Of a stretch of DNA of 64,000 nt, positions 21,962-58,890 are shown piece after piece. Both the position numbers and the translations under genes were made by a program. Source of the stretch: an uncultured Bacteroidales bacterium (lineage in GTDB: Bacteria; Bacteroidota; Bacteroidia; Bacteroidales; SZUA-534); assembly GCA_902790595.1 (NCBI GenBank), contig CADASL010000009.1, positions 25,229 to 89,228 of the forward strand, given 5' to 3'. The notes beneath the pieces are model-generated. The model searched no databases, was not told the origin of the DNA, and was given only the letters and a program-made list of their open reading frames with translations. Within the stretch, counting starts at the first letter, position 1. Each line of letters begins with the position of its first letter.

Positions 21962-21964
21962 TCG

Positions 21965-31294: not shown

Positions 31295-31778
31295 AGATAA
31301 AACGAGGTTGGAGCATATCGTTAACGCTATAGACATAGTTCTGGAGCGTACTGGTGCAATAACTCGCGAAAAATTGACAACCGACAAAGTTCAATTCGGT
31401 GGAATTGTCTACTACACATTGGTTATTGGTGAAGCGGCTTACAATCTTAGCAAGGCTTTCAAAGAAAAATACAAAGAGACCGATTGGCAGGAAATTGCCA
31501 AAATGCGACACAATTTGGTGCACGGATACTATCAAGTTGACCCCGATATTTTATGGGCTGTCGTAAATAACGACCTTCCACCGCTTCGAGAGCAAGTTAC
31601 CCGCTATTTGAAGGAAACCAATTGGGACGAGTGGGAGAAAAACGTTAAGGTGGTTACCGAATCGGCCGTTCACAAAAGTCTTATTCAAACCGCCCAACGA
31701 ATGAAATCCAAAGGTTATTCTGCAAAAGAAATCTCGTCAATAACAGGCCTTTCCGCTGACGAAATTGAGTCGGCGTAA
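31278..31778 (+). CDS. DUF86/HepT-type HEPN toxin with ~50-aa C-terminal extension
   Basis: 166 aa with the R-x4-H-x-Y motif 'RHNLVHGY'. The extra tail ends 'KGYSAKEISSITGLSADEIESA' (HTH-like). Confidence 0.8.
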   Translation: MREPLKDKTRLEHIVNAIDIVLERTGAITREKLTTDKVQFGGIVYYTLVIGEAAYNLSKAFKEKYKETDWQEIAKMRHNLVHGYYQVDPDILWAVVNNDLPPLREQVTRYLKETNWDEWEKNVKVVTESAVHKSLIQTAQRMKSKGYSAKEISSITGLSADEIESA

Positions 31779-43155: not shown

Positions 43156-44625
43156 CTACTTGAACGTTATCTTCTGCAAATCGTGTTTTTCAACCTTCTT
43201 TTCCAAATCTCTGACATTCAGTCGAATGGGTTCGGTAATGAATTCGGGAACGTTGAATGAATAGAACATCTCGTCGAAGTCTGCTGGCGAACGAAGCGGC
43301 AGACGGAAAGCCTTTGTTGCATTGCCGCAGGTGTCGATGTGCGCAATAAACGGCTGCGTGAACAACCCGTTCTCGCGGCGGCTCGAAACCACCATCCAGC
43401 GTCCGCTCGACGACCAGCTGTGATAACTGTCAACATCGCCACTGTTCAGGTTGTCGATGCGGTGGGTTGTGCCATCTGAAAGATTGAGCAGCCAAACATC
43501 CGACTCGGGATGCCAGATAGAGAATTGTCCGTAATCGGAAAGTGTGTAAGCCACAAAACTGCCATCGGGCGACGGTCGTGGAAACGAAACGCTTTTGCCT
43601 ATGGATGAAGCGTTTACAAGTGTGTCTGGTTGATGGCCAAACGTACCCGATTCGCTATCGAAGGCAATGCGGCAAAGGTTGTAACGCACGCTTTGTGGCG
43701 CGGTGTCCATATCAACAGCCCTTGCACTGCAGAAATAGAGCCATTTGCCGTCGGGCGAAAAATAGGGGAACGTCTCAAAATTATCCTTCGACATCAAATT
43801 CGGCGAACTCGAGAGCGTATTTGTTTTAGTATCAAGCACAACCACATCCGACCAGCGGTCGATGACTTCGATGCGTTTGGGATTGGCAGAGTGGAAAATC
43901 TGTCGGGTTTCGTTCACCGAATAGGCAATATGGCGGCCGTTGGGGTGCCACGACGGATAAACGCAGTTGCCGCGCGTGCTGTCGGTTCGGGTGTTATAAA
44001 CTTGCAACCGATTGTCTGTCAGAATCATTGTGCAACCGTGCGTACCGCGGACGTGCAGGCTCATTTTGTCGGTTTTCCATTGGCAAAACGAGTGGCAGTT
44101 GACGCAGTTGTTCTGCAGCAGATTGTTCTCAACAATCGCGCGTTGGTCGAAGTTTGAGAGATTGCGCTCATAGATGCCCATACTCGAAAACGTTTCGTAA
44201 CTTGGCGCTATCAGTCTGTAAACCAATCCGTAATCAATACTGTCGGGACTGACAAAAATCTCAAAAGGTTTGTATTGCGTCCATCGTCCGTTTTCTTTTA
44301 TCGCAACCTTGTAAATGATTGATTTACCGATGTTTTCAGCAAGCAGACAATGCCATTCGGCGATGCTGAAACTTGTGGCTTGCACCGATTGTGAGTGAAG
44401 AACCTCATTTCCATCTGACGAACAGACAGTTACATCAATTTTCTCAGCCTTGTTGATGGCCATAATGTTGAGCGGGGCAATGTTTACGGGCACTGTCACC
44501 GACTCATAATCAGGTGTTACGGGCGGCAGGGTATCGGTTGTTGCCGACACGTCAACTCGCTCGGTGCACGCTGTGCAAAGCGTTGACAATAAAATGATTA
44601 TAATATAATTTCTCATCGCCGTCAT
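43156..44625 (-). CDS. Lipoprotein with TolB/PD40-like beta-propeller and a CxxCH motif
   Basis: 489 aa with lipobox 'LCTAC'. 'NNCVNCH' is a heme-c-type CxxCH. Repeated 'SPDG(K/S)...' PD40-like blades are present. Confidence 0.6.
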   Translation of the reverse strand: MTAMRNYIIIILLSTLCTACTERVDVSATTDTLPPVTPDYESVTVPVNIAPLNIMAINKAEKIDVTVCSSDGNEVLHSQSVQATSFSIAEWHCLLAENIGKSIIYKVAIKENGRWTQYKPFEIFVSPDSIDYGLVYRLIAPSYETFSSMGIYERNLSNFDQRAIVENNLLQNNCVNCHSFCQWKTDKMSLHVRGTHGCTMILTDNRLQVYNTRTDSTRGNCVYPSWHPNGRHIAYSVNETRQIFHSANPKRIEVIDRWSDVVVLDTKTNTLSSSPNLMSKDNFETFPYFSPDGKWLYFCSARAVDMDTAPQSVRYNLCRIAFDSESGTFGHQPDTLVNASSIGKSVSFPRPSPDGSFVAYTLSDYGQFSIWHPESDVWLLNLSDGTTHRIDNLNSGDVDSYHSWSSSGRWMVVSSRRENGLFTQPFIAHIDTCGNATKAFRLPLRSPADFDEMFYSFNVPEFITEPIRLNVRDLEKKVEKHDLQKITFK

Positions 44626-46385
44626 TCGTTAAACAGATAAAACCAATAGGTGTCGCCAAAACGCGCCGCCAGACGCGAATCGTGATGGTTGGTGTTGTAA
44701 ATCTTCCCGAACTCGTAGAATTGGTCTAGCATCAGTCGGTCGGCTGTGCCGAAATCCTTCACCGCTTCGGGGTTCGTCATCCGCAAATGGAAAATGGCCG
44801 CTTCGCGGAACGCCCGCGGGTACGTAATGCTATAAAAACGTCCGCCAAATTCCGCATACTGCATAAAGTGCTCTATATCTTTGTTTAATAGATAGAAAGC
44901 CATCAGATATTCGAAGGCCTGCCGATTATTCTGATTTGTCGAAAATTTATCAAGCAGCATTGCATCTTTCTCTTTTTCAGCGTAAAAATAGTCGTTGTCA
45001 TTCTGAAAACTTCTCAGCCGCGTCCATTCAGCATTTTCGTCGGTGCGATTGCTGTCGATGGCACGGCGGCATTTTTGCGCCCATTTTGCGTAAAATGCTG
45101 TATTTTCAAGCATTGCAAGGTATTTGCGAGCCAACGGATAGTTCTTTTTAATGATGTTTGTCTCGGCAAGCCGCTTGACCGCTCTGACGCTTTCCTGATA
45201 ATCGGGATTTGCTTTGGCGGCTTCAAATGCGAACCGCTCAGCAAAATTGATGCCCCCCAAATGGTAATAAATCTCACTCAAGGCCATTGACACATCGCTA
45301 TCTGTCTCAAAATCAGGAATCAGCCCCAATGCACCAATCTGCTTGAAAGAGAACATTTTATCACCAAGACGATTTGTTTTGGCCAAAGCCAGATTAATAT
45401 ACGATGTCGTTATATTATCGGTTTGATACTTATTATCAGCAAGTTCCGTGGCTTTCTTCCAATTCTGCGTCCGAACATTATACTCAATGGCGCAGTTACG
45501 ATTGGTATTGAAATCGACATTGCTAGCAAAAACTGCTATTACTACAAAAACTGCTAATACCCAGGGAATTACAGACGAAACAGAAAAACGGCTAGAAGGA
45601 TTGTCTGACTTTTGCAAAACCTTGCTATTCAACAATTTATTAACTATAGGCAGAAAGGCCAAAAGAGAGCCGATGGCGATAGGCAGCTTTGGGAGAAAAA
45701 TCACATATCGCGAATAATCGGCCCCCAAGAAGGCGCGCGTTGCATTTAGTTGAACACCAAACAGTTGACGGGCAACAAATGGTGACGCCACAACAACTAA
45801 GACCGATAATAAAGAACTGACCAACAGCGATTTATCTTTTTTAGTCATAAAGAAATCGCAAAGCACATATCCAACGACAAACGCCGCAGGAATTCCGCCT
45901 GCAATCCAATATGTGGCAAAAACGATTACCGGAAGCAGTGCTGCAACCAACTTGTCGCTTTTTATCGAGTTGATTGATAATAGAATAAGACATCCAATTG
46001 AAATGCTGACCAATCCGTTGAGCAGCATTTGCCTGTTGAGCAAAATGCAAGCCGACAACAAGGCCACCAGAAATGCTATTTGGCAGCTGTATCTGCCTGA
46101 ATTTGGAAGACGCAGCACGCAAGCAAAAACCCCCGTCGACAGTATCGATATAAAAATCGCACCAATCTGTGGGGCAATGAAAAACTGCGTCAGAAAACGT
46201 CCTGAATACATCGCCAATCCGCCAGGACGGGTAAGCAGACCGAGAAAATATCCCGTTGTGGACTGAAAAAGTTGGTATTGCTCACCATATTGCAGCGTCG
46301 CGCCATAAGCGAAAGCGTAAAAGGCATACACGGCAATTGCCACAGCAATGCAAGGAATCGATTTCGATAATTTACTCATTGACAA
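44622..46385 (-). CDS. Polytopic membrane protein (~9-10 TM) with helical-repeat C-terminal domain
   Basis: 587 aa with ATGA overlap with the downstream PD40 gene. I cannot name the family, and the GT-C-like topology is only an inference. Confidence 0.5.
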   Translation of the reverse strand: MSMSKLSKSIPCIAVAIAVYAFYAFAYGATLQYGEQYQLFQSTTGYFLGLLTRPGGLAMYSGRFLTQFFIAPQIGAIFISILSTGVFACVLRLPNSGRYSCQIAFLVALLSACILLNRQMLLNGLVSISIGCLILLSINSIKSDKLVAALLPVIVFATYWIAGGIPAAFVVGYVLCDFFMTKKDKSLLVSSLLSVLVVVASPFVARQLFGVQLNATRAFLGADYSRYVIFLPKLPIAIGSLLAFLPIVNKLLNSKVLQKSDNPSSRFSVSSVIPWVLAVFVVIAVFASNVDFNTNRNCAIEYNVRTQNWKKATELADNKYQTDNITTSYINLALAKTNRLGDKMFSFKQIGALGLIPDFETDSDVSMALSEIYYHLGGINFAERFAFEAAKANPDYQESVRAVKRLAETNIIKKNYPLARKYLAMLENTAFYAKWAQKCRRAIDSNRTDENAEWTRLRSFQNDNDYFYAEKEKDAMLLDKFSTNQNNRQAFEYLMAFYLLNKDIEHFMQYAEFGGRFYSITYPRAFREAAIFHLRMTNPEAVKDFGTADRLMLDQFYEFGKIYNTNHHDSRLAARFGDTYWFYLFNE

Positions 46386-46473
46386 TCGGTTTAGCTATGC
46401 CCCAAATTCAAATCGCACAGCAAAGCAAGATAGCATTTATTCTGCAATTGGCTTGTAATTTGGCTTTTTACGC

Positions 46474-46514
46474 AAAAAAATTCCAGCAATTCCTAATTTC
46501 AGAATTGCTGGAAT
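46474..46514 (-). terminator. Intrinsic terminator of the symporter gene
   Basis: A perfect 12-bp stem attccagcaatt (46480-46491) / aattgctggaat (46503-46514), with a T7 run on the minus strand (46474-46480). Confidence 0.85.
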
Positions 46515-46546
46515 CATATATAAATCACAGATTGACAGCAGGTTTA

Positions 46547-48145
46547 TTATGCGGCAATCTTCTTTTTCTTCTTCTCCGTCAGCAGGCTAACCACCACAAT
46601 GGTGATGCACGAGAGCGGGAAAGCGAACATAATCGGGTCGATGAACTTCATCATTCCGTCGGTGATGAGCACGTCGGTGCCGAACAGAGCCTTGCAGACG
46701 CCCAGCGCCGTGGCTTCTTTGGCGTGGATGAACAGCAGAAGAAGAATGGTCACCACCACGCCCACAATCATACTCGCGAAAGCGCCTTGCTTTGTCACTC
46801 GTTTCCAATACAATGCGCAGAAATACGACGGCAGGAATGCCGATGCGCAGATGCCCATAAACAACGATGTGCTGATGGCGATGACAGGCGAATCGCTGTG
46901 CTCGCCAAGAACAAAGCAGATGATGTAACTGATTAATATCGAAACCAATACAGCCAAACGAACCATAATTGTCATACGGTCTTTGTGCTCGCGGTTCAGG
47001 CGGCGGCCCGAGTTGATATATGTGCCGTAGATGTCGCCGCCAGCGGCCGCGCCCATCGTGTGGAACTGCGCGCTCAAAGTGGACATACTTGCCGACAGAA
47101 TGCAGAGCATAAAGATGGTGACGAACCACGTAGGCATCACGCGGCCAATGAAATACGGGATTATCTTGTCGGATGCTTCAACCATATCGGCGGCGATTTT
47201 TCCGTCGTTCAGGTAGAAGTAAAGGTTCGATAGCGGGCCAACGTGGTAAATCACGCCCACGGTGATAATCAGGAACACACAGCCGATGGCCACACCCTGA
47301 TTCAGTTTCTTGGTGCTGTTCACCGTCATAAAGCGCACAACCAACTGCGGTTGCGCCAGGCAGCCGATGCCCACGCCCATAATCAGCGATGTGACAAGCG
47401 TGAACCACTGCTGCGACCCGAAGCGCGGCATTGCCGTCCAGCCTTGGTGACCAACGGCGGCCAGTTTTTCGGGAACTTGGTTCGAGATTCCTTCCAACGC
47501 GCGGTTGGCTTCGGCAAAGCCCATTCCCAGAGCCTTGTAAACACCGAACACCAGCACGCCCATACAGATGAACATTATCACGGCCTGCAGGGCATCGGTG
47601 TACATCACGCCCTTCATACCGCCAGCCATCACGTATGATGCCACTATCACAGTGAAAATCAGCAGCGAAAGGTCGAAACTGATGCCGAACACTTCCTGCA
47701 TACAGAACACGCCGCCACGCAGAACGGCAGCGGCATAGAGCGGCATACAAAGGAAGATGACCGATGCGGCGAAAATCCTGATACGCTTTGAGTTATAGTA
47801 GGCGCCAAGGAAGTGCGCGAACGATGTGGCGTGCAGTTTCGCGCCGATGCGACGCGTTGGTCGTCCGAAGATGATGAAGGCGATGACCACGCCCACAAAC
47901 ATATTCAGGAACATCAGCCACTGAATACCCATTCCGAAGGTTGCGGCCACACCGCCGAAACCCACTATGGCTGAAGCAGATATGAACGTGGCGCCATACG
48001 AGAGCGACATCACGATGGGGTTCATCTCGCCGCCGCCAATCAAAAAGTCTTTTGAGTTTTTCGTCTTCTTATAGCCCAAAAATCCCAAAAACGCGATGGC
48101 CAGGAAGTAGACCATCACAATCATATACATCGAAAAATTTTCCAT
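46547..48145 (-). CDS. Sodium:solute symporter family (SSF/SLC5) transporter
   Basis: 532 aa with about 13 TMs. 'GGEMNPIVMSLSYGATFISASAIVGFGG' and 'MAGGMKGVMYTDALQ'. Confidence 0.88.
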   Translation of the reverse strand: MENFSMYMIVMVYFLAIAFLGFLGYKKTKNSKDFLIGGGEMNPIVMSLSYGATFISASAIVGFGGVAATFGMGIQWLMFLNMFVGVVIAFIIFGRPTRRIGAKLHATSFAHFLGAYYNSKRIRIFAASVIFLCMPLYAAAVLRGGVFCMQEVFGISFDLSLLIFTVIVASYVMAGGMKGVMYTDALQAVIMFICMGVLVFGVYKALGMGFAEANRALEGISNQVPEKLAAVGHQGWTAMPRFGSQQWFTLVTSLIMGVGIGCLAQPQLVVRFMTVNSTKKLNQGVAIGCVFLIITVGVIYHVGPLSNLYFYLNDGKIAADMVEASDKIIPYFIGRVMPTWFVTIFMLCILSASMSTLSAQFHTMGAAAGGDIYGTYINSGRRLNREHKDRMTIMVRLAVLVSILISYIICFVLGEHSDSPVIAISTSLFMGICASAFLPSYFCALYWKRVTKQGAFASMIVGVVVTILLLLFIHAKEATALGVCKALFGTDVLITDGMMKFIDPIMFAFPLSCITIVVVSLLTEKKKKKIAA

Positions 48146-48168
48146 CTATAAATTATTGATAGTTAATA

Positions 48169-48291
48169 CTAAAGGTTGTCGGCATCGTCTTCTTTGTTCC
48201 AATACTTTATGCCAAAAATTATCGAGCCTATCACGCATAAAATCGACAGCAGATAGACAATCCAGATACCAGGGTCGGAAATACCAAACAT
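48169..48291 (-). CDS. Symporter small accessory protein (40 aa, below track cutoff)
   Basis: My translation is MFGISDPGIWIVYLLSILCVIGSIIFGIKYWNKEDDADNL*. It has a single TM and ends 23 nt upstream of the SSF start. Confidence 0.65.
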   Translation of the reverse strand: MFGISDPGIWIVYLLSILCVIGSIIFGIKYWNKEDDADNL

Positions 48292-48502
48292 TGTAATGCA
48301 GTTTTAAAATTGATGTTTAAAAAAGTGCATAAAAGTAGATAAATGTAGGATTTTGCTGATTGCTGCGGCTGATTGTACGTAAATCACTTATTGGCTACTT
48401 TTCTTTTGTCTAAATTTCATCGTATTGAACAGTAAACTTATTGGTTTCTTTCTCATATTTCCTTACATTTACCATTCAAACACATTAAAAAAGAAGATAT
48501 CT

Positions 48503-49699
48503 ATGAAAATAACAGCAAACAACCTTAACGGACAGGCAACGCTCACCGTCAGCGGGCGGATGGACACTTCCGCCACAGCCCAGGCCACTGCCGAAATCGA
48601 CAGCCAGTTGGCGGCTTGCGGCAAATTCGACACTCTGACCTGCGATGCCGCCGGGCTCGAATACATATCGAGTTCGGGCTTGCGTATTCTGTTGGGGTTG
48701 GCAAAGCGCTACCCAGACTTCCGTGTGACTGAAGTTTGTCCCGATGTGTACCAAGTGCTTGAAATGACAGGCTTTACAAAGATAATGAACGTTGAAAAGG
48801 CTATGCGGCGTTTCAGCGTCGACGGGTGCCAGATTATTGGTCGCGGCGGCGTTGGCGTGGTCTATCGCATTGATGATGATACAATTATCAAAGTTTTCCG
48901 CGAGGGCACGACTATCGACGAGGTGCAGACCGAAATCACAATGGCCAAAGAGGCGTTTGTGCTGGGAATGCCAACAGCCATTTCGTTCGACATTGTGCGC
49001 GTAGGCAGTCAGTACGGGCTTGTGTATGAGTTGCTTAAGGCCGACACATTGACAGCCTGTTTGAAGAGGGAGCCGCAGCGCATCGACGAGTTTGCAAGGC
49101 TCTATGCCAGCCTGTTCCGCCACTTGCACGACATCAAGGTGCCAAAAGGCGGCAGCATCCCGTCGTGCATCGAACGTGAGGAAGAGGCCGTGCGCATTAT
49201 CAGCCGCTATTTCGACACGCCGTCAACCGACCTTATGATGCGCATTGTTCAGGCAATCCCGCAGGGTGACCGACTTCTGCACTGCGACCTTCAGACCAAA
49301 AACGCAATGTTGCAGAACGGCGAACTGATGCTGATTGATATGGGCGAGGTTGGCTACGGGCATCCGATTATCGATTTGGGACATTCCTATTCGGCAATGG
49401 TGTCGCTCGTGGGCGATTACGAGCAGATTATCGGGCTGCCGCAACAGTTGGCTAACGATATATGGTTGAGGATGATACAATATTATTTCGAAGGTCAGAG
49501 CGCCGATTTTATCAAGCACCGCACCGAGCAGATTGCAGTGGTGGGCTGTCTGCGCAACTTCACGTGGCTCTCGTTGAGCAACTCGTTCCCCGACGAGGTG
49601 ATTCGCCACTGTCAGGAGATATTTGCCGAGCGCGTCACCAAGCGCAAAGACTATATTCTCTCGGTTTGCGACACCTTTAAGGATTGGACGTTGGAATGA
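48503..49699 (+). CDS. STAS (anti-sigma-antagonist) domain fused to an APH/ChoK-type protein-kinase-like domain
   Basis: Inner ATG (MKITANNLNGQATLTVSGRMD...). STAS motif 'LEYISSSGLRILLG'. Kinase-like G-loop 'IGRGGVGVVY', Lys 'IIKVF', Brenner motif 'HCDLQTKN' and 'LIDMGE'. Confidence 0.75.
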   Translation: MKITANNLNGQATLTVSGRMDTSATAQATAEIDSQLAACGKFDTLTCDAAGLEYISSSGLRILLGLAKRYPDFRVTEVCPDVYQVLEMTGFTKIMNVEKAMRRFSVDGCQIIGRGGVGVVYRIDDDTIIKVFREGTTIDEVQTEITMAKEAFVLGMPTAISFDIVRVGSQYGLVYELLKADTLTACLKREPQRIDEFARLYASLFRHLHDIKVPKGGSIPSCIEREEEAVRIISRYFDTPSTDLMMRIVQAIPQGDRLLHCDLQTKNAMLQNGELMLIDMGEVGYGHPIIDLGHSYSAMVSLVGDYEQIIGLPQQLANDIWLRMIQYYFEGQSADFIKHRTEQIAVVGCLRNFTWLSLSNSFPDEVIRHCQEIFAERVTKRKDYILSVCDTFKDWTLE

Positions 49700-49938
49700 A
49701 ATATTTAGGCGAGCCGCTTCGCGGGAAATTGAAAGAAAATTTATAACAAAATTATAAGAAAATGATTTTCAAAATTTTATCGCTAACCAAAACAACCCGA
49801 ATTAATCCGAACATAATGTTTGGATTCCGTTTGGATAAGTTTGGTTAGAAATGAAAATTGTAAAATTTTTTGATTGAATTTTCTACAAATTTCCGCCCGT
49901 CAGGGCGCCTAAAAAACTTGCATAAAGAAACAAACAGA

Positions 49939-52149
49939 ATGAGCACAAGATTCAGAGAATGGCGCAAGTCGCTGAAAACCAAATCGACACTAGCCATAAT
50001 AATCACGGCCGCAGTGCTGATTGAGACCACGTCGGTGGTTCAGTACAAATTTGCCAGCGATGGAATCCGCGAGGAGGTGCAGCAGCGCGCCGAGAGCGAG
50101 TTGAAAGTTCGTAACCTGAAGATTAAGAACGTGATGAGCGCCGTTGAGGTGGCGGTGCAGAATATGGAGTGGATTGTTGAGTTGTGTCTCAGTCAGCCCG
50201 ACTCGATGTACGCTGTGACGCGTAAGATGCTAACTTGCAACGATATAATTGTTGGTAGCGCCGTAGCCTTCGAGCCGAACTATTATCCTAAAAAAGGCCG
50301 CCAATTCTCGCCATACTCTTACAAAACCGAAGACGGCACTATCCGCAGCAAGCAACTCGGCACCGACGATTATGAGTATCACGATATGGAGTGGTACGCC
50401 GTGCCAATGCGCAACAACCGTCCGCACTGGAGCGAGCCTTACTACGACGAGGGCGGAGGCGAGATGATGATGTCGACCTACTCAATGCCCATTCACGACG
50501 CCACGGGCCGCACCGTTGGCATTTTCACCGCCGACGTGTCGCTCGACTGGCTGGGCGAAGTTATCAACGCCAACCGAATCTATCCGTCGTCAGTGAATAT
50601 GATGATTTCGCGCACTGGCCAGATGATGGCCTGCCCCGTTGAGAGCCTTGTGATGCGCACCAACATTATCGACCTGTCGGCAGGAATCAAAGACACTTCG
50701 GTCAAGAGCCTGAACCGCGATATGATGGCGGGCGGAAGCGGCTGTGCCACCGTCACCGACGACAACGGCGACCTGAACTACGTCTATTACGCGCCCGTCG
50801 ATAACGGCACGGGCTGGTCGATGGCTGTCATTTGCCGCGACCGCGAGATATACAATGGTCTTCGCCAAATTGCCTTCAACCTGTTTGTGATGATGATTAT
50901 CGGCCTGATTCTTCTGGGCTTCATAATTGCGCGCACCATTCGCAGCATTAACCGTCTGCAGAAGGTGAGCGCCGAAAAGGAGCGCATTGGCAGCGAGTTG
51001 CACATTGCCAGCGAGATTCAGAAGGGTATGCTGCCGAAGATTTTCCCGCCTTATCCCGACCGCAACGATATTGAGATTTTCGGCCACCTGGTGCCAGCCA
51101 AGGAGGTGGGCGGCGACTTGTTCGACTTCTATATCCGCGACGAGAAACTGTTCTTCTGCATAGGCGATGTGTCGGGCAAGGGCGTTCCAGCGTCGTTGGT
51201 GATGGCCGTCACAAGGGCGCAGTTCCGCACGCTGTCGGCGCACGAGTCGTCGCCCGACCGCATTGTCACGGCGATGAACGACGCAATGTCGGAAATGAAT
51301 GATGCCAATATGTTTGTGACGTTCTTCATTGGCGTGCTCGACCTGCCGACAGGCCGTATGCGCTACTGCAATGCGGGCCACAACTCGCCGCTACTCATAG
51401 GCTCGGGCGTGGGACCGCTCAAATGCGGCTCAAACATTCCTATCGGCGTGATGACAGGTTGGAAGTACACCGCCCAGGAGACGCATATCGACTGCAACAC
51501 AACTATATTCCTGTTTACCGATGGCCTGACCGAAGCCGAAAACGTTGAGCACGAACTATTTGGTGATGACCGAATGATGCAAACCGCACGAGAGGCTCTG
51601 GCCGCAAAAAAACTTCAGCCCGAAGCACTTATCGGTCAGATGATGACTGCCGTTCACGCTTTTGTGGGCACCGCCGACCAAAGCGACGACCTGACAATGC
51701 TTGCCGTGCAATACACCAAGCCGCAGGTTGACGAGAAATTCCAGCGCAGCGTGACGCTTCACAACAATATCGACGAGATTCCGCACTTGGCCGAATTTGT
51801 CGAAGGCGTGTGCGAGGCCGTTGGCTTCGATGCCGCCCTGACAATGCAGATGAACCTTGCCATTGAGGAGGCAGTGGTGAATGTCATTAATTATGCCTAT
51901 CCGCCAGGAACACACGGAGTTATCAATATAAAGGCACAGGCCAACGACGAGCGTTTGAAATTCGTCATTATCGACAGCGGCACCCCCTTCGACCCCACGG
52001 TGAAAGATGATGTTGACATTTCGCTGCCAGCCGAGCAGCGCCCCATCGGCGGACTCGGCATCCACCTTGTGCGCCAACTGATGGACACCATCAACTACGA
52101 ATACACCGACGGCCAAAACGTGCTGTCGCTGAGGAAGAAGTTGAAATAG
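49939..52149 (+). CDS. Cache-like sensor - TM - SpoIIE/PP2C phosphatase - RsbW/SpoIIAB-like HATPase kinase fusion
   Basis: Inner ATG (MSTRFREWRK...). Two TMs flank about 290 aa of periplasmic Cache-like domain. PPM region 'GGDLFDF...IGDVSGKGVPASL...LFTDGLTEA...SDDLTMLAV'. C-terminal 'EEAVVNVINYAY...IIDSGTPFDP...GGLGIHLVRQLMD'. Confidence 0.8.
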   Translation: MSTRFREWRKSLKTKSTLAIIITAAVLIETTSVVQYKFASDGIREEVQQRAESELKVRNLKIKNVMSAVEVAVQNMEWIVELCLSQPDSMYAVTRKMLTCNDIIVGSAVAFEPNYYPKKGRQFSPYSYKTEDGTIRSKQLGTDDYEYHDMEWYAVPMRNNRPHWSEPYYDEGGGEMMMSTYSMPIHDATGRTVGIFTADVSLDWLGEVINANRIYPSSVNMMISRTGQMMACPVESLVMRTNIIDLSAGIKDTSVKSLNRDMMAGGSGCATVTDDNGDLNYVYYAPVDNGTGWSMAVICRDREIYNGLRQIAFNLFVMMIIGLILLGFIIARTIRSINRLQKVSAEKERIGSELHIASEIQKGMLPKIFPPYPDRNDIEIFGHLVPAKEVGGDLFDFYIRDEKLFFCIGDVSGKGVPASLVMAVTRAQFRTLSAHESSPDRIVTAMNDAMSEMNDANMFVTFFIGVLDLPTGRMRYCNAGHNSPLLIGSGVGPLKCGSNIPIGVMTGWKYTAQETHIDCNTTIFLFTDGLTEAENVEHELFGDDRMMQTAREALAAKKLQPEALIGQMMTAVHAFVGTADQSDDLTMLAVQYTKPQVDEKFQRSVTLHNNIDEIPHLAEFVEGVCEAVGFDAALTMQMNLAIEEAVVNVINYAYPPGTHGVINIKAQANDERLKFVIIDSGTPFDPTVKDDVDISLPAEQRPIGGLGIHLVRQLMDTINYEYTDGQNVLSLRKKLK

Positions 52150-52305
52150 TTAGGAGTTAGAATTGAGGATTTAGGAGTATAAAGGGCTATAAAAAACTAA
52201 ACCCACCGACTTGACTTGCGTCAGGGGACGGTGGGATTCAACAATGCAAATGTAGGAAAGATTTTTGATAAGGCAAGACATACAACAATTTTTTTCGATA
52301 AAGAA

Positions 52306-53001
52306 ATGAAATACAAAGATTTTGAGAAAATACTATCGCAAGAACGAATGAGTCGCTACTTAATTGCCTGTGGTGGCGATACGCGCAAGGCGATGACTCT
52401 TTACCGATACAATTTACAACTCTCGCAAGAGGCGTTCACAATAATAAGTTGCTTTGAAGTGGCATTGCGTAATGCTATCGACAACCATTTGGTATCTATA
52501 TTAGGTGCGGAGTGGCTTAAAAATTCTATTATGAACGGAGGTGTATTTACGAATCCAGTACTTCATAAAACTTATGATATTATAAATTACGCCTATATCA
52601 AATTACGCAGTTCAGGAACTTACTCACATTCAAAATTATTGGCAGAAATGGAATTCGGTATATGGAAATATATGTTTTCACCTATACAATATCGAGTTAC
52701 AGGGCAACAACTTTTGCGTATTTTCCCAAATAAGGCTCGTTCAACGCCCGAAACACAATACAATCGCACATACATTTTCAACGAACTTGACAAAATCAAC
52801 ACCCTGCGCAACCGCATAGCGCACCACGAGCCTGTTTGTTTCTCGTTGCAGCAACCCGTAATCGATACGGCTTATATTTTGAACGAATACCAAAAAATCC
52901 AAACACTCTTTATGTGGATGGGTATCGACAATCGCGCCCTGCTCTATGGTCTCGACCATATCCAGCAGGTTTGCGCAAGGATTAGCGAGTTGAAATCTTA
53001 A
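52306..53001 (+). CDS. Abi_2 (AbiD/AbiF-like abortive-infection) family protein
   Basis: Inner ATG (MKYKDFEKILSQERMSRYL...). 'YRYNLQLSQEAF...FEVALRNAI' and 'LRNRIAHHEP'. It is AT-rich (17/60 G+C in a counted line). Confidence 0.7.
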   Translation: MKYKDFEKILSQERMSRYLIACGGDTRKAMTLYRYNLQLSQEAFTIISCFEVALRNAIDNHLVSILGAEWLKNSIMNGGVFTNPVLHKTYDIINYAYIKLRSSGTYSHSKLLAEMEFGIWKYMFSPIQYRVTGQQLLRIFPNKARSTPETQYNRTYIFNELDKINTLRNRIAHHEPVCFSLQQPVIDTAYILNEYQKIQTLFMWMGIDNRALLYGLDHIQQVCARISELKS

Positions 53002-53050
53002 AAACGATTTTGATTTTTTTAAGTAATTTGCCAACATAATTAACACGAAA

Positions 53051-54847
53051 ATGAACAGCATCATCTTTCTCGGATTGAATGGTTACGCCTGGATAACAAT
53101 CGCCACCATAGCGGGCATCTTTGTCATTATGGCGCGAACACGCATACGGGCGGAGGTTGTCTTTCTGGGCGCGCTCACGGTGCTGCTCGTCACGGGCGTG
53201 GTGACGGAGGAGGAAGGAATGGCAGGCTTCGGGTCGGAGCCTGTGGTGGTACACGCGGCGTTTTTCGTCATTATTGCGGCGCTCATCCATACGGGCGTGC
53301 TCTATTGGCTGTCGAAAAACGTGCTTGGAACGCCCAAAACGCGTGTGGGCGCACTGTTGCGGCTGATGATTCCCGCCAGCGTGCTTTCGGCCCTGATGAA
53401 CTCGGTGAACATTGTTGCACTGCTTATCGATGCAGTCAAACTCTGGGCTCACAAACTTGGTGTTGCACCGTCGAAACTGCTTCTGCCGCTGAGTTACGCT
53501 GCCGCGATGGGCGGAATGTGCACCCTGCTCGGCAACTCGTCGAACTTGGTCATTGCGGGCCTTTATCTGAACCAGACAGGGCAGACGATGAACATTTTCG
53601 AGCCGCTCGTTCCAGGTCTGATACTCACAGCCATTGGCACCGCCGTGGTGATTGCGCTTCAACGGCTCATTCCAGAGCGCGAATCGTCGGAGCATACCTT
53701 TGAGACCACCAGCGACTACACCGTGGAACTGCTTGTGCCCACCGACAACCCCGCCGTAGGCTGCTCGGTCGAAGAAGCGGGGCTCTACAACGTCAAGGGC
53801 GGCTCGCTGGTCGAGATTGTGCGGTTCGACAAGGAAGTGATAATGCCCGTGCCCAAGACCGAATGGATTCTGGGCGGCGACCGACTAATCTATGCAGGCC
53901 AAATCAACGAGATTCTTGAACTCAAACGCACTCACGGCCTTGCTGCCGCCGACCACCACGTGTGGAGCATCAACGATATCGACACCAGCCGCAAGATGCG
54001 CACAGCATACATAACCTTCGGCAGCGACCTTATCGGCCAATCGATGACGCAGAGCGATTTTGAGCAGAAGAACGATGTGGTGCTTGTGGCCGTGGCGCGT
54101 CAGGGACAACGTGTCGATGGGCAGCCGCGCGAGATAACACTTCAGGCAGGCGACACGCTTCTGCTTGAGTGCCCCGCAAAAAGCGACGACCAACTCGAGC
54201 GCAACAACCACCGCAGCCTGACATTCTTCGATTCGCATTTCGTGCCCGAAATTGGCTCAAAAACAATCACTTCAGCCGCCATACTGGTGCTGATGTTCAT
54301 ATTCTCGTCGTTCCACGTGATGCCGCTGATGGCCACCACAATGCTGGCTGCTGGCCTGATGATGATTTTCAAGTGCTGTCGGTTCGACAGTGTGGTGAAA
54401 TACATTGAGTGGGACATTCTGCTCATTCTGGGCGCCACAGTGGTCTTCTCAACGGCCATAACCAAAACAGGTATTTCGGGCGCTCTTGCCCAAAACATTA
54501 TCGATGTTTTCGGCACCAACCCCTACGTGATACTGGCCGTGATGTGCCTGATAGCGTCGGTTGTGACCGAATTTGTAGGCGATGTGGCCGCGGCCGCCAT
54601 TTTCTTCCCCGTGATGTTCGGTCAGGCCGAAATGCTGGGCTGCAGCCCGATGCCGTTTGTCGTATCGCTGATGCTCTGCGTCACCTTCAGTTACTCGTCG
54701 CCCATCGGCAGCATTCAGAATATGCTTGTCTTCGGCCCAGGCTCGTTCCGCTTTTCCGATTTCGCAAGGGTGGGCGTGTGGCTTCACTTTGTTCTGCTTG
54801 TCGCGATGCTGGCCATTGTAAATCTTTTGTATCCAATGTATATTTGA
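53051..54847 (+). CDS. SLC13/DASS-type anion permease with two central TrkA-C (RCK_C) domains
   Basis: 598 aa. Transporter halves ('LLGNSSNLVIAG', 'SYSSPIGSIQNMLVFG') flank two RCK_C-like modules ('VGCSVEEAGL...', 'IGQSMTQSDF...'). Confidence 0.85.
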   Translation: MNSIIFLGLNGYAWITIATIAGIFVIMARTRIRAEVVFLGALTVLLVTGVVTEEEGMAGFGSEPVVVHAAFFVIIAALIHTGVLYWLSKNVLGTPKTRVGALLRLMIPASVLSALMNSVNIVALLIDAVKLWAHKLGVAPSKLLLPLSYAAAMGGMCTLLGNSSNLVIAGLYLNQTGQTMNIFEPLVPGLILTAIGTAVVIALQRLIPERESSEHTFETTSDYTVELLVPTDNPAVGCSVEEAGLYNVKGGSLVEIVRFDKEVIMPVPKTEWILGGDRLIYAGQINEILELKRTHGLAAADHHVWSINDIDTSRKMRTAYITFGSDLIGQSMTQSDFEQKNDVVLVAVARQGQRVDGQPREITLQAGDTLLLECPAKSDDQLERNNHRSLTFFDSHFVPEIGSKTITSAAILVLMFIFSSFHVMPLMATTMLAAGLMMIFKCCRFDSVVKYIEWDILLILGATVVFSTAITKTGISGALAQNIIDVFGTNPYVILAVMCLIASVVTEFVGDVAAAAIFFPVMFGQAEMLGCSPMPFVVSLMLCVTFSYSSPIGSIQNMLVFGPGSFRFSDFARVGVWLHFVLLVAMLAIVNLLYPMYI

Positions 54848-54866
54848 CAAATAAAAAATTACTGAA

Positions 54867-55172
54867 ATGAACACATCAATCCAACAGCAAGACGGCACTG
54901 TCACAGCCATTCTCGAAGGACGGCTCGACACCGCCGCCGCACCCGAAACCGAAAAGAAACTTCAGCCGCTCTACGACCTGAACGGACAGAACATTGTGTT
55001 CGACTGCTCGAAACTCGAATACATCTCGTCGAGTGGTCTGCGCATCTTTCTCGGTGTGCTGAAAAACGCCAAACCCAAAGGCAGCCACGTCAGCATCACA
55101 GGTCTCACCCCCGACCTGAAGAACATCTTTGCAATGACGGGGTTCAATCATCTGTTTGATGAAGTGGAATAA
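54867..55172 (+). CDS. STAS-domain anti-sigma-factor antagonist (RsbV/SpoIIAA-like)
   Basis: 101 aa. 'LEGRLDTAAAPE' and a phospho-Ser context 'LEYISSSGLRIFLG' identical to that of 48503..49699. It starts 20 nt after the SLC13 stop. Confidence 0.85.
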   Translation: MNTSIQQQDGTVTAILEGRLDTAAAPETEKKLQPLYDLNGQNIVFDCSKLEYISSSGLRIFLGVLKNAKPKGSHVSITGLTPDLKNIFAMTGFNHLFDEVE

Positions 55173-55221
55173 TATAGGTTTGAGTTTAGAGTTTATGGGA
55201 TGTGTTTAGGCGTAGATTTAA

Positions 55222-58032
55222 TTACCGCCTATCCCCCATCACCCCATTGAAATTCATCGAAAGCAGCAAACCGAAGTAATTGTCGTTCAGCGTCAAACAG
55301 TGGGCATATCGCATACCAGCCGAGATGGGCACCGCAAAGCGATAGATGTGGAAATCGACCGTCAGGTCGTAGCCTGTTGAGCGCATTAATGTGGTTTTTC
55401 CTTCGTTGACGGCTTCGGCGAAATCACAAAAGAGTTTACCTTTTATTCGCTTGATATACAGCGCACTGCCGATACTCAAATCGGGATAGAAAAGCGGTCC
55501 ACAGTACGATATCATTAATGTTTTGAGCCGAGTGTTCGGCACCGCTTTGTAACCACGCGGATAAAGTACCAACGAATTGAATACAAGATTGTTACGGTTG
55601 CTTTCCTGCCAGCCGCCATAAATCGTAATGCCCTGGTTGCGGTACGGTCCTGGCAGATAGAGCCAAGCCTGCGCGGCCGTCTGATGGTTCTCGGGTTGGT
55701 CGATGTAGTGATGGTAGTCGCCGCGAAGAACGATGCCCCAGCGCGATTGCAAATCACGGTGCGCGAGCCGCCTTAACGACTGAAAATAAAGACAATAGCC
55801 CAGCGTGTGGTCTGTGGTGTCAACGGCTTTGCGGCCATACGACAATTCGGTGTTGATATATTGGTAAGACGCCTGCGCTGTCAGTGATGTGGTGAAAACG
55901 CTAGTTTTCAGCGTCATAGGCACTTGTACAAACGCTACGCCACGTTTGCGACGCACATCAAAAGTATAAGTGCCTTTGTTCGTTTCTTGCTGTGTTTTAA
56001 ACTTATAGATGTCGCCACGAGCACCGATTATCGGGAAAAAGCCCTTATAGCGGTATTCAAGAAAATAATCGTCTTTGCTTTCAGCGGTAAGCCATTGATA
56101 ACCAGCTGTTAGGAACGATGTGGAAAGCGCGTCTTGAGACATTATTGTCAGGCCTGGACCGACTTCCGACTCATCAATTCGCACTGAAATTGGCCCCCAA
56201 CTGTGGATGTTGAGCAGATGTGCCAATCGCCTGTAACGCTGCACTTTATACACGCTGTCGTTGCCGAAAACAACTCTTTGCTCTTGTTCGGCGAGCGCTT
56301 GCGTCTGACTGTTTGCAATGGCCGTCGGCATTTCGGTTTTGGCAAGGTTATCTATCTGTTTTTCAGCAATCTGAAAACCATCGGCGGTGTAGTAGCCGAA
56401 CAGCAGACGGTTGTTGTTCACGCTGCCGCCCCAAACACCGAACGGACTCTCGGCCACCAAGCCGAAAGTGCTGTCGGTCAGGCTGTAAGCATACCAGGCG
56501 GTGTTGTCGTTGTGGGTGCCAGTCATATAGAGTTTGTTGCCGCTGAACAGCAGATTCGAGATGTCATCGTTGATTTGTGGCAGCACAGTGTCGATGGTTT
56601 GGTGTTCCAAATCAATCACCGAAACCGACTTGCAATCCTGCTCTATCGCAATGTAAGCCAGCCGTTTATCGTCGTCGGACCAAGCCACGTGCACTGGCAC
56701 GGAATTGCCAGTTTGAAACCGCGCAGCCCGACTGCCGTCAAGGTTGTGAAGTTCGACAGCCCACTGCGATGAATCGGCGTAACTGATTGACGCTATTTGA
56801 GTTGCCGAGTGCGAAAGCGTTGAGCCATAGTAGCGCCCGCGGCGAATCAGAGTGCGTTTGCGGTGGCGGTCAAGGTCGTAAGTCACAATTTGGCTGTGGT
56901 TGGCGTTTTCCCAGCGAGTGTAACGCAATTGATTCCAAACCAGCAAGTTGCCCGATGCAGAAAAATGTTTGATGCTCATCGGGCCAGGACGGGTGATTTT
57001 TCTAATTCGGCCTTTGTCGGTGTCAATCGCCACAAACGACGGAATGTCAGACAGTTGCTCACGCAAGGCCACCACCGTGCCCTGTGCGTTTTTCTGTGGC
57101 ACAAAGTAACTTGTGTAGTCGCGCGGTGTTGGCTTTGTAAGCAGTCGGGCATTGTCGGGGGCGGCGTTTTTTGCACCTGCGACGAGAGGTTCAAGAGCCG
57201 CACGATAGAACTCAACTTCCTTTAAACCAGTTGTTTCGCGTATTCCGCGGCCAAACGGTCGCAGCGCAATCGGGTGGCGCGCCACTCGTGTCATCGCATT
57301 CGGCCAAAGTTGTGCGCCATAATGCTGCCGACCATAACTTATTAGTTGATAGCCAAGATGATAGCGCGTTGGCACATAATCGGCAAACGAGCCGAACATT
57401 GCTTTCTGATAACTGTAAACGCCTTTTTGCGCCACCTGCGCGGCCAGACGGTTGGTGAAATCGCCCGTGCGTCCGCGCCCCGACAGTGAAGCGCCTGTCT
57501 CATACGCCACCGCGTCACCTTCCAGAAACCAGTAAGGCACGTGCAGACCGAGCAGAAGCCCCGTATATTGCTCGCCGAGCAGGATGCTGAAAAATCGCGA
57601 TGCGCCCTGATTCAGCATATCGGTTTGCACCACGTGGCGGAATTCGTGCAGCACAAGTTGTTGATTCCAAACGTGTTGATAATTGTCGGGCGAAGCCGTT
57701 GTGAGCAGATTCATCCGCCGCGGCGCCCAAGCCACTTCGCCATTGGCGTACGCCGCCGACGTGAACAGCACCGCAGGAACGCGCCTTGGCTGCCAGCCGA
57801 GCGTTTTGCCGCCGCCTAGATACACTCGTTCAAGATTGTTGGCGTAGATTTGCCCCAGCGCCGCATTGCTTTGTGGAAAAATCACATCGAAATGCGCTGT
57901 TTTTATGTGAGATAGCCTGCGGAAACGGTCTTGACCGCTATCGTAGAATTGGCCTTGAGCCGACGTCGCGGCAAGCGCAAAAAACAAGAACAGCAACTGC
58001 CTGATTTTTTGATGGCTCATTGCTGTTCTCAT
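55222..58032 (-). CDS. Large secreted protein: HExxH (peptidase-MA-like) N-domain + beta-propeller-like middle + beta-rich C-terminus
   Basis: About 936 aa from the MRTAMSHQK... start, with signal peptide 'LLFLFFALAATSAQG'. 'LVLHEFRHVVQ' contains HExxH. I do not recognise the family. Confidence 0.55.
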   Translation of the reverse strand: MRTAMSHQKIRQLLFLFFALAATSAQGQFYDSGQDRFRRLSHIKTAHFDVIFPQSNAALGQIYANNLERVYLGGGKTLGWQPRRVPAVLFTSAAYANGEVAWAPRRMNLLTTASPDNYQHVWNQQLVLHEFRHVVQTDMLNQGASRFFSILLGEQYTGLLLGLHVPYWFLEGDAVAYETGASLSGRGRTGDFTNRLAAQVAQKGVYSYQKAMFGSFADYVPTRYHLGYQLISYGRQHYGAQLWPNAMTRVARHPIALRPFGRGIRETTGLKEVEFYRAALEPLVAGAKNAAPDNARLLTKPTPRDYTSYFVPQKNAQGTVVALREQLSDIPSFVAIDTDKGRIRKITRPGPMSIKHFSASGNLLVWNQLRYTRWENANHSQIVTYDLDRHRKRTLIRRGRYYGSTLSHSATQIASISYADSSQWAVELHNLDGSRAARFQTGNSVPVHVAWSDDDKRLAYIAIEQDCKSVSVIDLEHQTIDTVLPQINDDISNLLFSGNKLYMTGTHNDNTAWYAYSLTDSTFGLVAESPFGVWGGSVNNNRLLFGYYTADGFQIAEKQIDNLAKTEMPTAIANSQTQALAEQEQRVVFGNDSVYKVQRYRRLAHLLNIHSWGPISVRIDESEVGPGLTIMSQDALSTSFLTAGYQWLTAESKDDYFLEYRYKGFFPIIGARGDIYKFKTQQETNKGTYTFDVRRKRGVAFVQVPMTLKTSVFTTSLTAQASYQYINTELSYGRKAVDTTDHTLGYCLYFQSLRRLAHRDLQSRWGIVLRGDYHHYIDQPENHQTAAQAWLYLPGPYRNQGITIYGGWQESNRNNLVFNSLVLYPRGYKAVPNTRLKTLMISYCGPLFYPDLSIGSALYIKRIKGKLFCDFAEAVNEGKTTLMRSTGYDLTVDFHIYRFAVPISAGMRYAHCLTLNDNYFGLLLSMNFNGVMGDRR

Positions 58033-58074
58033 TTTATTTCGACTTAAATCGCAGAATATCAACCCTGTATCAGA

Positions 58075-58890
58075 TTACAGTTCGTTTATAAGTTCTGTGA
58101 TTATTGTTGTCATTTGCGGTTCAACGCGGCCTGCCACGTCCTGAACTTCGTCGTGCGTGGTCTCGCCGTCGGGCGTTGCGGGCTTGTCGGTGTTGGTGAT
58201 TATCGACAGGCCAAGAACACGAATTCCCATATGGTGAGCCACAATCACTTCGGGCACGGTTGACATTCCTGTGGCGTCGGCGCCCCAGATGCGGAACATC
58301 TTGTACTCGGCGGGCGTCTCAAGCGTCGGGCCAGGGCTGCCGATGTACACGCCTTCCTGCAGTTTGATTCCGTGACGCTCGGCAATTTTGTGCGCGCGCG
58401 AAATCAACTCGCCGTCGTAGGTCTTGCTCATATCGGGGAAGCGCGGGCCCAGTTCGTGATAGTTGTAGCCGCGCAGCGGATTCTCGGGGAAGTTGTTGAT
58501 GTGGTCGCGGATAATCATAATGTCGCCAACCTTGAATGACGGATTGATTCCGCCCGAAGCGTTCGACACTATAAGTATCTCGATACCAAGGAATTTCATC
58601 ACTCGGATGGGGAACGTGAGTTGGTTCATCTCGTAGTTCTCGTAGTAATGAAACCGCCCCTGCATTGCCACCACCTTCTTACCGCCGAGCTCGCCCAGCA
58701 GCAACTGTCCCTTGTGTCCATCGACAGTCGAAATCGGGAAGCCAGGAATGTCCTTGTAAGCGATTGATTTATCGACTTTTATCTTGTCGCCCAAACCGCC
58801 CAGGCCACTGCCCAGCACAATTCCCACCTGCGGCTTGTAGTTAAGCCCCTGCAAGACGAATTCGGCTGTTTTTTTGAAATCTTCAATCAT
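58075..58890 (-). CDS. Purine nucleoside phosphorylase (PNP/UDP family, trimeric type)
   Basis: 271 aa. 'GIVLGSGLGGL', 'MQGRFHYYE', 'SNASGG' and 'GMSTVPEV'. Confidence 0.9.
   Translation of the reverse strand: MIEDFKKTAEFVLQGLNYKPQVGIVLGSGLGGLGDKIKVDKSIAYKDIPGFPISTVDGHKGQLLLGELGGKKVVAMQGRFHYYENYEMNQLTFPIRVMKFLGIEILIVSNASGGINPSFKVGDIMIIRDHINNFPENPLRGYNYHELGPRFPDMSKTYDGELISRAHKIAERHGIKLQEGVYIGSPGPTLETPAEYKMFRIWGADATGMSTVPEVIVAHHMGIRVLGLSIITNTDKPATPDGETTHDEVQDVAGRVEPQMTTIITELINEL

Follow-up and report, generated by a model that had tools for sequence, protein, structure and literature searches.

What does a partner switch control when no sigma factor is at hand to be switched? Partner switching is the textbook mode of sigma factor control, and only a handful of outputs other than sigma factors are known. 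The question is raised by a locus at positions 48503 to 55172 of a 64-kb window (the whole stretch that was analyzed, whose numbering is used for all locus coordinates) from contig CADASL010000009.1 of an uncultured rumen Bacteroidales bacterium. Five open reading frames (ORFs), all on the same strand, fill the locus (Table 1). Four of these code for a STAS domain fused to an APH/ChoK-like kinase, a membrane sensor enzyme with both a PP2C/SpoIIE phosphatase and an RsbW-type kinase domain, an SLC13/TrkA_C permease, and a free-standing STAS protein. We favor, with moderate confidence, the interpretation that they constitute a partner-switching module of the RsbU/RsbV/RsbW type, the predicted outputs of which are an enzyme and a carrier and not a sigma factor. 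Every domain that a first-pass annotation had claimed for these four genes scores above its Pfam threshold, but that annotation omitted the fifth gene, an Abi_2/AbiD-like gene between the phosphatase and permease genes, and the gap between the permease stop codon and the free STAS start is 19 nt rather than 20 nt.

Table 1. Features of the locus and other predicted phosphatase genes in the window
Feature	Position (nt)	Strand	Size or residues	Basis and remarks
STAS-kinase fusion	48503..49699	+	398 aa	Pfam STAS and APH; N-terminal SpoIIAA-type STAS, linker, APH/ChoK-fold kinase
STAS domain of fusion	48503..48817	+		Candidate phospho-acceptor Ser57 (nt 48671-48673)
APH/ChoK-like kinase domain of fusion	48818..49699	+		Pfam APH; active-site motifs present
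Membrane sensor enzyme	49939..52149	+	736 aa	Order: transmembrane segment (TM) 1, periplasmic dCache, TM2, helical linker, PP2C/SpoIIE, RsbW-type HATPase_c_2
TM1 of sensor enzyme	49984-50040	+	aa 16-34	Hydropathy
dCache/PDC sensor domain, predicted extracytoplasmic	50209..50829	+	aa 91-297	Pfam PF22673, PF02743
TM2 of sensor enzyme	50869-50925	+	aa 311-329	Hydropathy
PP2C/SpoIIE phosphatase domain	51139..51714	+	aa 401-592	Pfam SpoIIE
RsbW/SpoIIAB-type serine kinase domain	51772..52137	+	aa 612-733	Pfam HATPase_c_2
Abi_2/AbiD/PD-T4-5-like gene	52306..53001	+		Insertion in phosphatase-permease spacer; not part of the switch
SLC13/DASS-superfamily permease	53051..54847	+	598 aa	Pfam CitMHS, Na_sulph_symp, TrkA_C
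Two cytoplasmic TrkA_C (RCK_C) domains, permease central loop	53684-54250	+	~aa 212-400	Pfam
Stand-alone STAS protein	54867..55172	+	101 aa	Pfam STAS; candidate phospho-acceptor Ser55 (nt 55029-55031)
TPR plus C-terminal SpoIIE gene, first of tandem paralogues	19748-21961	-	~740 aa	Pfam
TPR plus C-terminal SpoIIE gene, second of tandem paralogues	21965-24190	-	~740 aa	Pfam

The locus holds the components that characterize a partner switch, namely STAS domains with a phosphorylatable serine, a HATPase_c_2 kinase with its sequence boxes, and a PP2C phosphatase with its metal-binding aspartates. The last two are joined in the sensor enzyme, with Pfam matches to MCP-like_PDC_1 (E = 8e-31), dCache_1 (3e-16), SpoIIE (1e-47), and HATPase_c_2 (9e-25), and hydrophobic segments recognized by hydropathy and by AlphaFold2 (AF2) secondary structure bracket the dCache domain, so that the sensor is predicted to be extracytoplasmic and the two catalytic domains cytoplasmic. 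Pfam and topology thus agree with the first-pass placement of phosphatase, RsbW-like domain, and Cache sensor in a single polypeptide, and this four-domain architecture is common to 119 of the 120 best enzyme homologues. In the AF2 model the domains are well folded, with low confidence in the linker (residues 333 to 374). The phosphatase motifs for metal binding (GGDLFDF, GDVSGKG, TDGLTE, and SDDLT) align with those of Mycobacterium tuberculosis Rv1364c (3ke6; E = 2e-13), the best solved-structure relative of this domain, and D393, D410, D528, D583, and D584 are invariant among 24 homologues (alignment A3). The N box (EEAVVNVINYA), G1 box (DSGTPFD), and G2 box (GGLGIHL) of the RsbW domain align to Bacillus subtilis RsbW (6m36), and E643, N648, D679, G681, and G704-G707 are invariant in the same 24 homologues. 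The catalytic motifs of both domains are accordingly intact. The dCache domain has conserved pocket-type residues (Y126, Y147, W164, Y168, and D199; alignment A3); a reading of it as an amino acid sensor was set aside on the weak inference, made by eye, that a Met, in place of the Arg that amino acid-binding dCache domains have, stands two positions before the conserved WY.

Both STAS domains carry the sequence LEYISSSGLRI(L/F)LG noted in the first-pass annotation, and its middle serine aligns with the phosphoserine of SpoIIAA. The fused domain (Pfam STAS, 31.8 bits against a cutoff of 22.6; residues 9 to 99) aligns to two structures of SpoIIAA (4hyl and 1th8) with the SSG motifs matched, and YISSSGLR is invariant in 17 of 17 STAS-kinase homologues (alignment A1), with a start codon common to 16 homologues. 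The free STAS protein matches Pfam STAS (E = 7e-16) and TIGR00377 (66.8 bits, above the cutoff of 53.45) and is 31% identical to the fused domain. A disordered linker (residues 96 to 105) leads from the fused STAS domain to the kinase (Pfam APH, 36.8 bits against a cutoff of 23.2; residues 120 to 298), in which the G-loop (residue 113), Lys130, HCDLQTKN (260 to 267), and IDMGE (278 to 282) can be recognized. These elements, with the catalytic motif as HxDLQTKN, are kept in all 17 aligned homologues, the APH-like domain is better conserved than the STAS part, and its active site is, to judge from these motifs, intact.

A sequence search of the kinase domain against the PDB gave no significant relative, with only the STAS part of the protein matched, and a fold comparison was therefore needed. 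The AF2 model of the fusion (pLDDT 82) places the kinase nearest to a protein of the ChoK/ethanolamine kinase family, APH(2''), APH(3'), and MTR kinase (Foldseek probability 1.0, E ~1e-8), with 12 to 18% identity to these solved structures. It shares the fold and the Brenner-type catalytic motif of the APH/ChoK-fold small-molecule kinases but differs from them, and from the Fibrobacter paralogous family TIGR02172, in its N-terminal STAS domain. The STAS-kinase family is large: a word-indexed search yielded 2053 matches, and a representative library yielded 589 clusters at 50% identity (E up to 1e-30), most of them full-length at ~390 to 400 residues.

The permease has CitMHS as its best Pfam family (E = 4e-58), with further matches to Na_sulph_symp (E = 6e-14; 52.3 bits against a cutoff of 27) and two TrkA_C stretches (E = 2e-13). 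A profile of its family matches human SLC13A2, SLC13A5, and SLC13A1 and VcINDY over the C-terminal half (E = 1e-14 to 1e-19), and the predicted carrier can be assigned at the level of the SLC13/DASS family only. A carboxylate-sensing switch acting on a carboxylate carrier, as suggested in the first-pass annotation, is speculation.

Pfam scans of every substantial ORF in the window revealed no Sigma70, GGDEF, or other classical output, as first claimed, and no sigma gene is present in the related loci for which gene calls or flanking ORFs were scanned for domains, so that the target of a textbook switch is found neither in the window nor in the sampled relatives. The RsbW domain might nonetheless sequester a sigma factor or transcription regulator encoded elsewhere, with the permease and kinase as bystanders or as co-regulated genes. 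Family-wise the domain is closest to the anti-sigma B and anti-sigma F factors, the window is only 64 kb of a genome in which a sigma factor could lie elsewhere, and Chlamydia RsbW is reported to act on a primary sigma factor encoded away from it. We consider such an arrangement very unlikely here, given the lack of sigma genes in the scanned sequences, the predicted tethering of the RsbW domain to the membrane, and the conserved fusions described below, which argue that the kinase is a partner. No factors of the sigma B or sigma F type are known from Bacteroidota.

The fused kinase is tied to the switch by its gene neighborhoods in relatives. Our survey took a single STAS-kinase locus per species for 80 GTDB species, which are without exception rumen or gut Bacteroidales, and identified neighbors with hidden Markov models built from the window domains; 13 loci are cut by a contig end and 67 are informative. 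The STAS-kinase gene adjoins a partner-switch or SLC13 gene in 40 of the 67, the neighbor being dCache-PP2C-RsbW (28 loci), dCache-PP2C (7 loci), REC-PP2C (1 locus), a lone RsbW (2 loci), or SLC13 (2 loci). This linkage is kept in at least five gene orders (kinase/enzyme/STAS, enzyme/STAS/kinase, enzyme/kinase, kinase/SLC13/enzyme/STAS, and RsbW/kinase/dCache-PP2C, where kinase denotes the STAS-kinase fusion and enzyme denotes dCache-PP2C-RsbW). Only the STAS-kinase and dCache-PP2C-RsbW pair is present in 11 species, which makes the fused STAS domain itself a plausible substrate of the enzyme. Loci anchored on PP2C-RsbW genes point the same way, with three of three samples adjoining a STAS-kinase, STAS, or SLC13 gene; the three contexts are STAS-kinase/enzyme/STAS, two tandem enzymes/STAS, and RelA_SpoT/APH without STAS/HD_4/enzyme/SLC13.

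Distant representatives include fusions of the STAS-kinase to HATPase_c_2 (at either end), HD_4, PHP, or an AraC-type helix-turn-helix (HTH) domain. Those that include an RsbW-type domain have the orders STAS-APH-HATPase_c_2 and HATPase_c_2-STAS-APH, and one fusion cluster derives from metagenome-assembled genomes (MAGs) of Clostridia. Three fusion types show the same pattern of neighbors, in the contexts STAS/SpoIIE/STAS-APH-RsbW, SpoIIE-HATPase_c_2/unknown/HD_4-STAS-APH/STAS, and RsbW-STAS-APH/STAS. The triple fusions with an RsbW domain bear on the idea that the APH-like domain is no output enzyme but a protein kinase whose substrate is the STAS domain of the fusion, either in cis or in trans, opposed by the PP2C phosphatase. 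That idea would account for five loci in which a STAS-kinase is paired with a dCache-PP2C without any RsbW (L060, L066, L074, L082, and L085); the APH-like active site appears intact, and a Hanks-type kinase of M. tuberculosis is reported to phosphorylate an anti-anti-sigma homologue. We think it highly unlikely all the same: an RsbW domain within a STAS-APH fusion would be redundant, the fold is nearest to small-molecule kinases and not to protein kinases, and stand-alone relatives of the kinase without STAS exist beside RelA_SpoT and HD_4 genes.

The permease has a partner-switch neighborhood of its own. Among 80 metagenome loci with SLC13 genes at 63 to 99% identity, 73 are informative on both sides, and in 48 of these the SLC13 gene is directly flanked by an RsbW-type gene upstream and by a STAS gene downstream, with one such neighbor in a further 7. 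Of the STAS genes that come after SLC13, 72 of 72 have the motif YISS[SA]GL. Immediately upstream of three SLC13 homologues at 73 to 74% identity, from six loci (L086-L091), there is in every case an RsbW-type gene, either lone or fused to dCache-HAMP-PP2C, and a 100-residue STAS gene comes immediately after the permease wherever the contig extends that far; a STAS-kinase gene is present in none of the six. In many SLC13 loci (L086, L090, L096, L124, L127, L131, L148, and L161-L163) a gene for an NMT1/THI5-like periplasmic binding protein lies directly upstream of dCache-HAMP-PP2C-RsbW, and this protein is a possible co-sensor.

The locus genes are syntenic in relatives whether loci are anchored on STAS-kinase, SLC13, or PP2C-RsbW genes, and the checks of domains and synteny that the first-pass annotation had proposed support the core of its interpretation. 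The locus is not a single tight operon. Two separable modules are combined in it, with one dCache-PP2C-RsbW gene common to both, and in the window a defense gene insertion splits them. Each module occurs without the other, and with a defense gene between them in the window it might be supposed that an independent STAS-kinase/PP2C-RsbW pair lies by chance beside an unrelated SLC13-STAS pair, with no shared signaling. This supposition is scarcely credible to us. An RsbW-type gene lies upstream of SLC13 in 51 of the 73 loci, so that the PP2C-RsbW gene of the window is also what one would expect to find upstream in the SLC13 module; the full four-gene set recurs at 60 to 71% identity in five loci (L033, L062, L071, L112, and L139); and the spacer between enzyme and permease genes is merely 45 to 50 nt, with no Abi gene, in uninserted close relatives (L010, L012, and L013).

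Close relatives also show how the locus varies. It is ~98% identical to a sheep rumen MAG labeled Salinivirgaceae bacterium RGIG6642, and window positions 44622 to 58890 were compared with the 10 long-enough contigs among L005-L016 (those of L009 and L016 are too short). In these relatives the four-gene block is kept, with 87 to 99% identity, but the flanks differ in 9 of the 10, and only L012 has the flanking genes of the window. Per-gene identities are mosaic, as in L005 (STAS-kinase, 90%; enzyme, 98%; permease, 99%), which together with the differing flanks suggests that the block has been recombined or relocated. The PP2C-RsbW/SLC13 spacer is an insertion hotspot in these near-identical rumen relatives. 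It is occupied by an Abi-like gene in the window (within 52150-53050) and in L008, by an Abi gene plus a gene for an 897-residue N6-methylase protein in L011, by a gene for a Schlafen/AlbA_2-HATPase_c_4-HTH protein in L007, and by PDZ-LRR_5 and XRE-type HTH genes in L005, L006, and L015; defense-type cargo therefore sits inside a signaling operon. The Abi gene of the window matches Pfam Abi_2 (E = 2e-8) and the PADLOC models PD-T4-5 (E = 4e-13) and AbiD (E = 1e-6). A scan for promoters and terminators across 48000 to 55400 gave no usable operon boundaries, the sigma-70 consensus that it used being unsuited to Bacteroidota promoters.

Gene order and fusions favor the wiring that was first proposed, in which the Cache-PP2C-RsbW protein acts on two STAS domains and the fused kinase, the SLC13 permease, or both are the outputs. 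Binding of a ligand to the dCache domain would shift the balance of phosphatase and kinase activities through TM2 and the helical linker, for which the control of PPM phosphatases by N-terminal sensors through coiled-coil linkers offers a precedent. That balance would set the phosphorylation of Ser57 in the STAS-kinase and of Ser55 in the free STAS protein. The fused STAS domain would serve as a handle by which either the RsbW domain or phosphorylation as such turns the APH/ChoK-like kinase on or off, and this kinase probably acts on a small molecule. In rsbV-rsbW-sigB the sigma factor has the operon slot that is taken here by the permease, which makes the permease a likely second target; it could be gated at its cytoplasmic TrkA_C domains by either the RsbW domain or the free STAS protein. 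There may also be competition between the two STAS proteins for the one RsbW domain.

The direction of signaling between switch and permease could also be the reverse. Here the SLC13/TrkA_C protein would be the sensor, a transceptor for its substrate or for a cytoplasmic ligand, that holds or releases STAS or RsbW, and the true outputs would be the APH-like kinase and, in relatives, RelA_SpoT and HD_4 enzymes. TrkA_C/RCK_C domains are ligand-binding regulatory modules, and the TrkA_C region is, by a slight margin, the best-conserved part of the permease (0.86, against 0.77 to 0.82 elsewhere). Many loci are minimal RsbW/SLC13/STAS trios without PP2C or sensor domains, often with a translationally coupled RelA_SpoT gene next: a RelA_SpoT-domain gene coding for 350 to 367 residues follows STAS in eleven SLC13 loci (L088-L091, L096, L097, L104, L124, L127, L163, and L171), often overlapping the STAS stop codon, and an HD_4 gene is present in some. 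RelA_SpoT or HD_4 genes recur beside STAS, SLC13, or STAS-kinase genes in L042, L063, L135, and L178 and with protein P0350, and in L135 and L178 RelA_SpoT, APH, and HD_4 genes precede PP2C-RsbW/SLC13. We take this reversed direction seriously but think it unlikely for the window, where the enzyme already has a dedicated dCache sensor, where the analogy to the rsbV-rsbW-sigB slot favors the permease as a target, and where there is no RelA_SpoT gene.

The RelA_SpoT and HD_4 genes and fusions of related loci, the strongest additional clue from beyond the window, hint at a nucleotide-messenger link, although the window has neither gene. STAS might then be a detachable phospho-handle that brings metabolic enzymes and a carrier, and not transcription, under the partner switch, in a circuit in which the APH-like kinase and the RelA_SpoT and HD_4 enzymes that recur next to it or in fusions with it make or remove a nucleotide-type messenger, and this messenger, or STAS, gates SLC13 through TrkA_C. 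We hold this version to be quite improbable. Were it true, it would be a signaling circuit not described before, with a wide distribution among the Bacteroidales and Clostridia of rumen and gut.

Several observations weigh against the module of enzyme and carrier outputs that we favor. Partner-switch neighbors are absent beside 27 of the 67 STAS-kinase genes (each with 2.5 kb or more of sequence to either side) and 18 of the 73 SLC13 genes; the unlinked SLC13 genes make up about three sub-clades, and the neighbors of the orphan STAS-kinase genes are housekeeping genes unrelated to the switch (a purL-type formylglycinamide ribonucleotide amidotransferase, valyl-tRNA synthetase, GH2, and radical SAM genes) and include no hidden partner. 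In the window itself the Abi-like gene stands between the phosphatase and permease genes. Scores fall below the curated cutoffs of NCBIfam for the RsbW equivalog (55 bits against 145), for the SiaA equivalog, for TIGR02172, the best NCBIfam match of the kinase-like domain (106.2 bits against 228.2), and for the DASS subfamily TIGR00785 (92.9 bits against 198.6). The AF2 monomer of the enzyme has a pTM of 0.43 and is uninformative on the packing of its domains, and no residues were found that separate RsbW/STAS-linked from unlinked SLC13 proteins, and thus no docking signature. The minimal trios fit a permease that senses equally well, and the potential sigma factor outside the 64 kb belongs on the same side.

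Comparison with known systems shows which parts of the locus are familiar. The RsbU/RsbV/RsbW-sigma B and SpoIIE/SpoIIAA/SpoIIAB-sigma F switches of B. subtilis likewise use a serine-bearing STAS protein, a HATPase_c_2 kinase, and a PP2C/SpoIIE phosphatase, and share the operon logic of kinase, antagonist, and target encoded together. Unlike those switches, the locus has no sigma factor close by and joins phosphatase and kinase in a single membrane protein with a periplasmic dCache domain; one antagonist is fused to an APH-like kinase, and a permease takes the slot of the sigma gene. Vibrio fischeri SypE/SypA is similar in that a single polypeptide with RsbW-like kinase and PP2C phosphatase domains acts on a STAS protein, with an output that is not a known sigma factor; SypE, however, is cytoplasmic and ordered kinase-REC-phosphatase, whereas the window enzyme is ordered dCache-TM-phosphatase-kinase and lacks the central REC domain, and the targets differ. 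M. tuberculosis Rv1364c (PAS-PP2C-RsbW-STAS) has the same order of PP2C and then RsbW but is cytoplasmic, with a PAS sensor, its own fused STAS, and a link to sigma F. Chlamydia trachomatis RsbU/RsbV1/RsbV2/RsbW shares a membrane RsbU with a periplasmic sensor, two STAS antagonists, and an operon without a dedicated alternative sigma factor; its kinase is not joined to the phosphatase, the target proposed for it is the primary sigma factor, and it has neither a permease nor a fused kinase. The first-pass statement that the periplasmic domain of Chlamydia RsbU binds tricarboxylic acid cycle intermediates is correct per the literature, but the likeness to the window dCache is architectural only and the ligands are not transferable.

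Switch phosphoproteins acting on targets other than sigma factors are also familiar from Pseudomonas SiaABCD and HsbR/HsbA, Bordetella BtrUVW, and Rhodobacter RbaVW, the outputs of which are diguanylate cyclases, type III secretion, and gene transfer agent production, with no APH-like kinase or SLC13 carrier among them. Sigma-independent switches (SypE/SypA, BtrUVW, RbaVW, HmpUVW, and SiaABCD) and bifunctional PP2C-kinase proteins (SypE, Rv1364c, and Campylobacterota examples) are thus already established; what would be new is the partnership with an APH-like kinase and an SLC13 carrier. Our literature search found nothing specific on a STAS-APH fusion, TIGR02172, partner switching in Bacteroidota or Prevotella, or STAS proteins with alarmone synthetases.

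Regulation of transporters by direct contact with STAS domains is known from the C-terminal STAS of SLC26/SulP, from SLC26A6-STAS, and from MlaB-MlaF, and the STAS domain of SLC26A6 inhibits SLC13A2 (NaDC-1), a mammalian SLC13 member. These couplings are not known to be switched by an RsbW/PP2C pair. In the window the STAS protein is free-standing and TrkA_C domains are part of the carrier. A rumen MAG of Clostridia (L172 and L173; 11266-13020, minus strand) has a fusion of a MatE efflux transporter with an RsbW-like HATPase_c_2 domain, at a distance of a few kb from a STAS/SpoIIE/STAS-APH-RsbW/PHP/DUF218/Peptidase_M15 cluster, a precedent for an RsbW-like domain physically tied to a transporter.

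If the favored interpretation is correct, a very abundant family of rumen and gut Bacteroidales, reaching Clostridia, puts the switch on two new kinds of partner, an uncharacterized STAS-fused APH/ChoK-fold kinase and an SLC13/TrkA_C anion carrier, and related loci tie it also to RelA_SpoT and HD_4 enzymes. In Prevotella-type bacteria it would give thousands of genes a function where the annotation now says no more than STAS domain-containing protein, SpoIIE family phosphatase, or SLC13 family permease; it would also provide a first handle on partner switching in Bacteroidota, and constitute a bacterial counterpart of the STAS-SLC13 regulation of the mammalian kidney.

Other switch-type genes reported in the first-pass annotation are likewise present elsewhere in the window. 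The two TPR-SpoIIE genes (19748-24190, minus strand) lie without a STAS or kinase partner nearby and may code for phosphatases that act in trans. The SiaC/DUF1987 gene (4352-4753, minus strand; E = 1e-37) ends 15 nt before a CNNM/CBS membrane protein gene (3296-4336, minus strand), a second case in the window in which a phosphoprotein of the switch type is paired with a transport-like membrane protein. The window is otherwise typical of Bacteroidales, with a Bat aerotolerance operon, leu and aro genes, and DUF6057. A small PD-(D/E)XK nuclease-family gene (27131-27532, plus strand) lies between two aconitase-family (leuC/leuD-like) genes, and a gene for a HepT-like, toxin-type ribonuclease (31278-31778, plus strand) lies upstream of a methyltransferase gene. 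Positions 24430 to 24805 (minus strand) code for a class A bacterial RNase P RNA (200 bits), and the 138-residue ORF at 24424-24840 (plus strand) is spurious. At the right end, a gingipain-like C25 peptidase gene with a signal peptide (60224-64000, plus strand; propeptide, C25, Ig-like, and CARDB domains) runs past the end of the window, and a 392-residue ORF on the opposite strand (61181-62359, minus strand) is its shadow.

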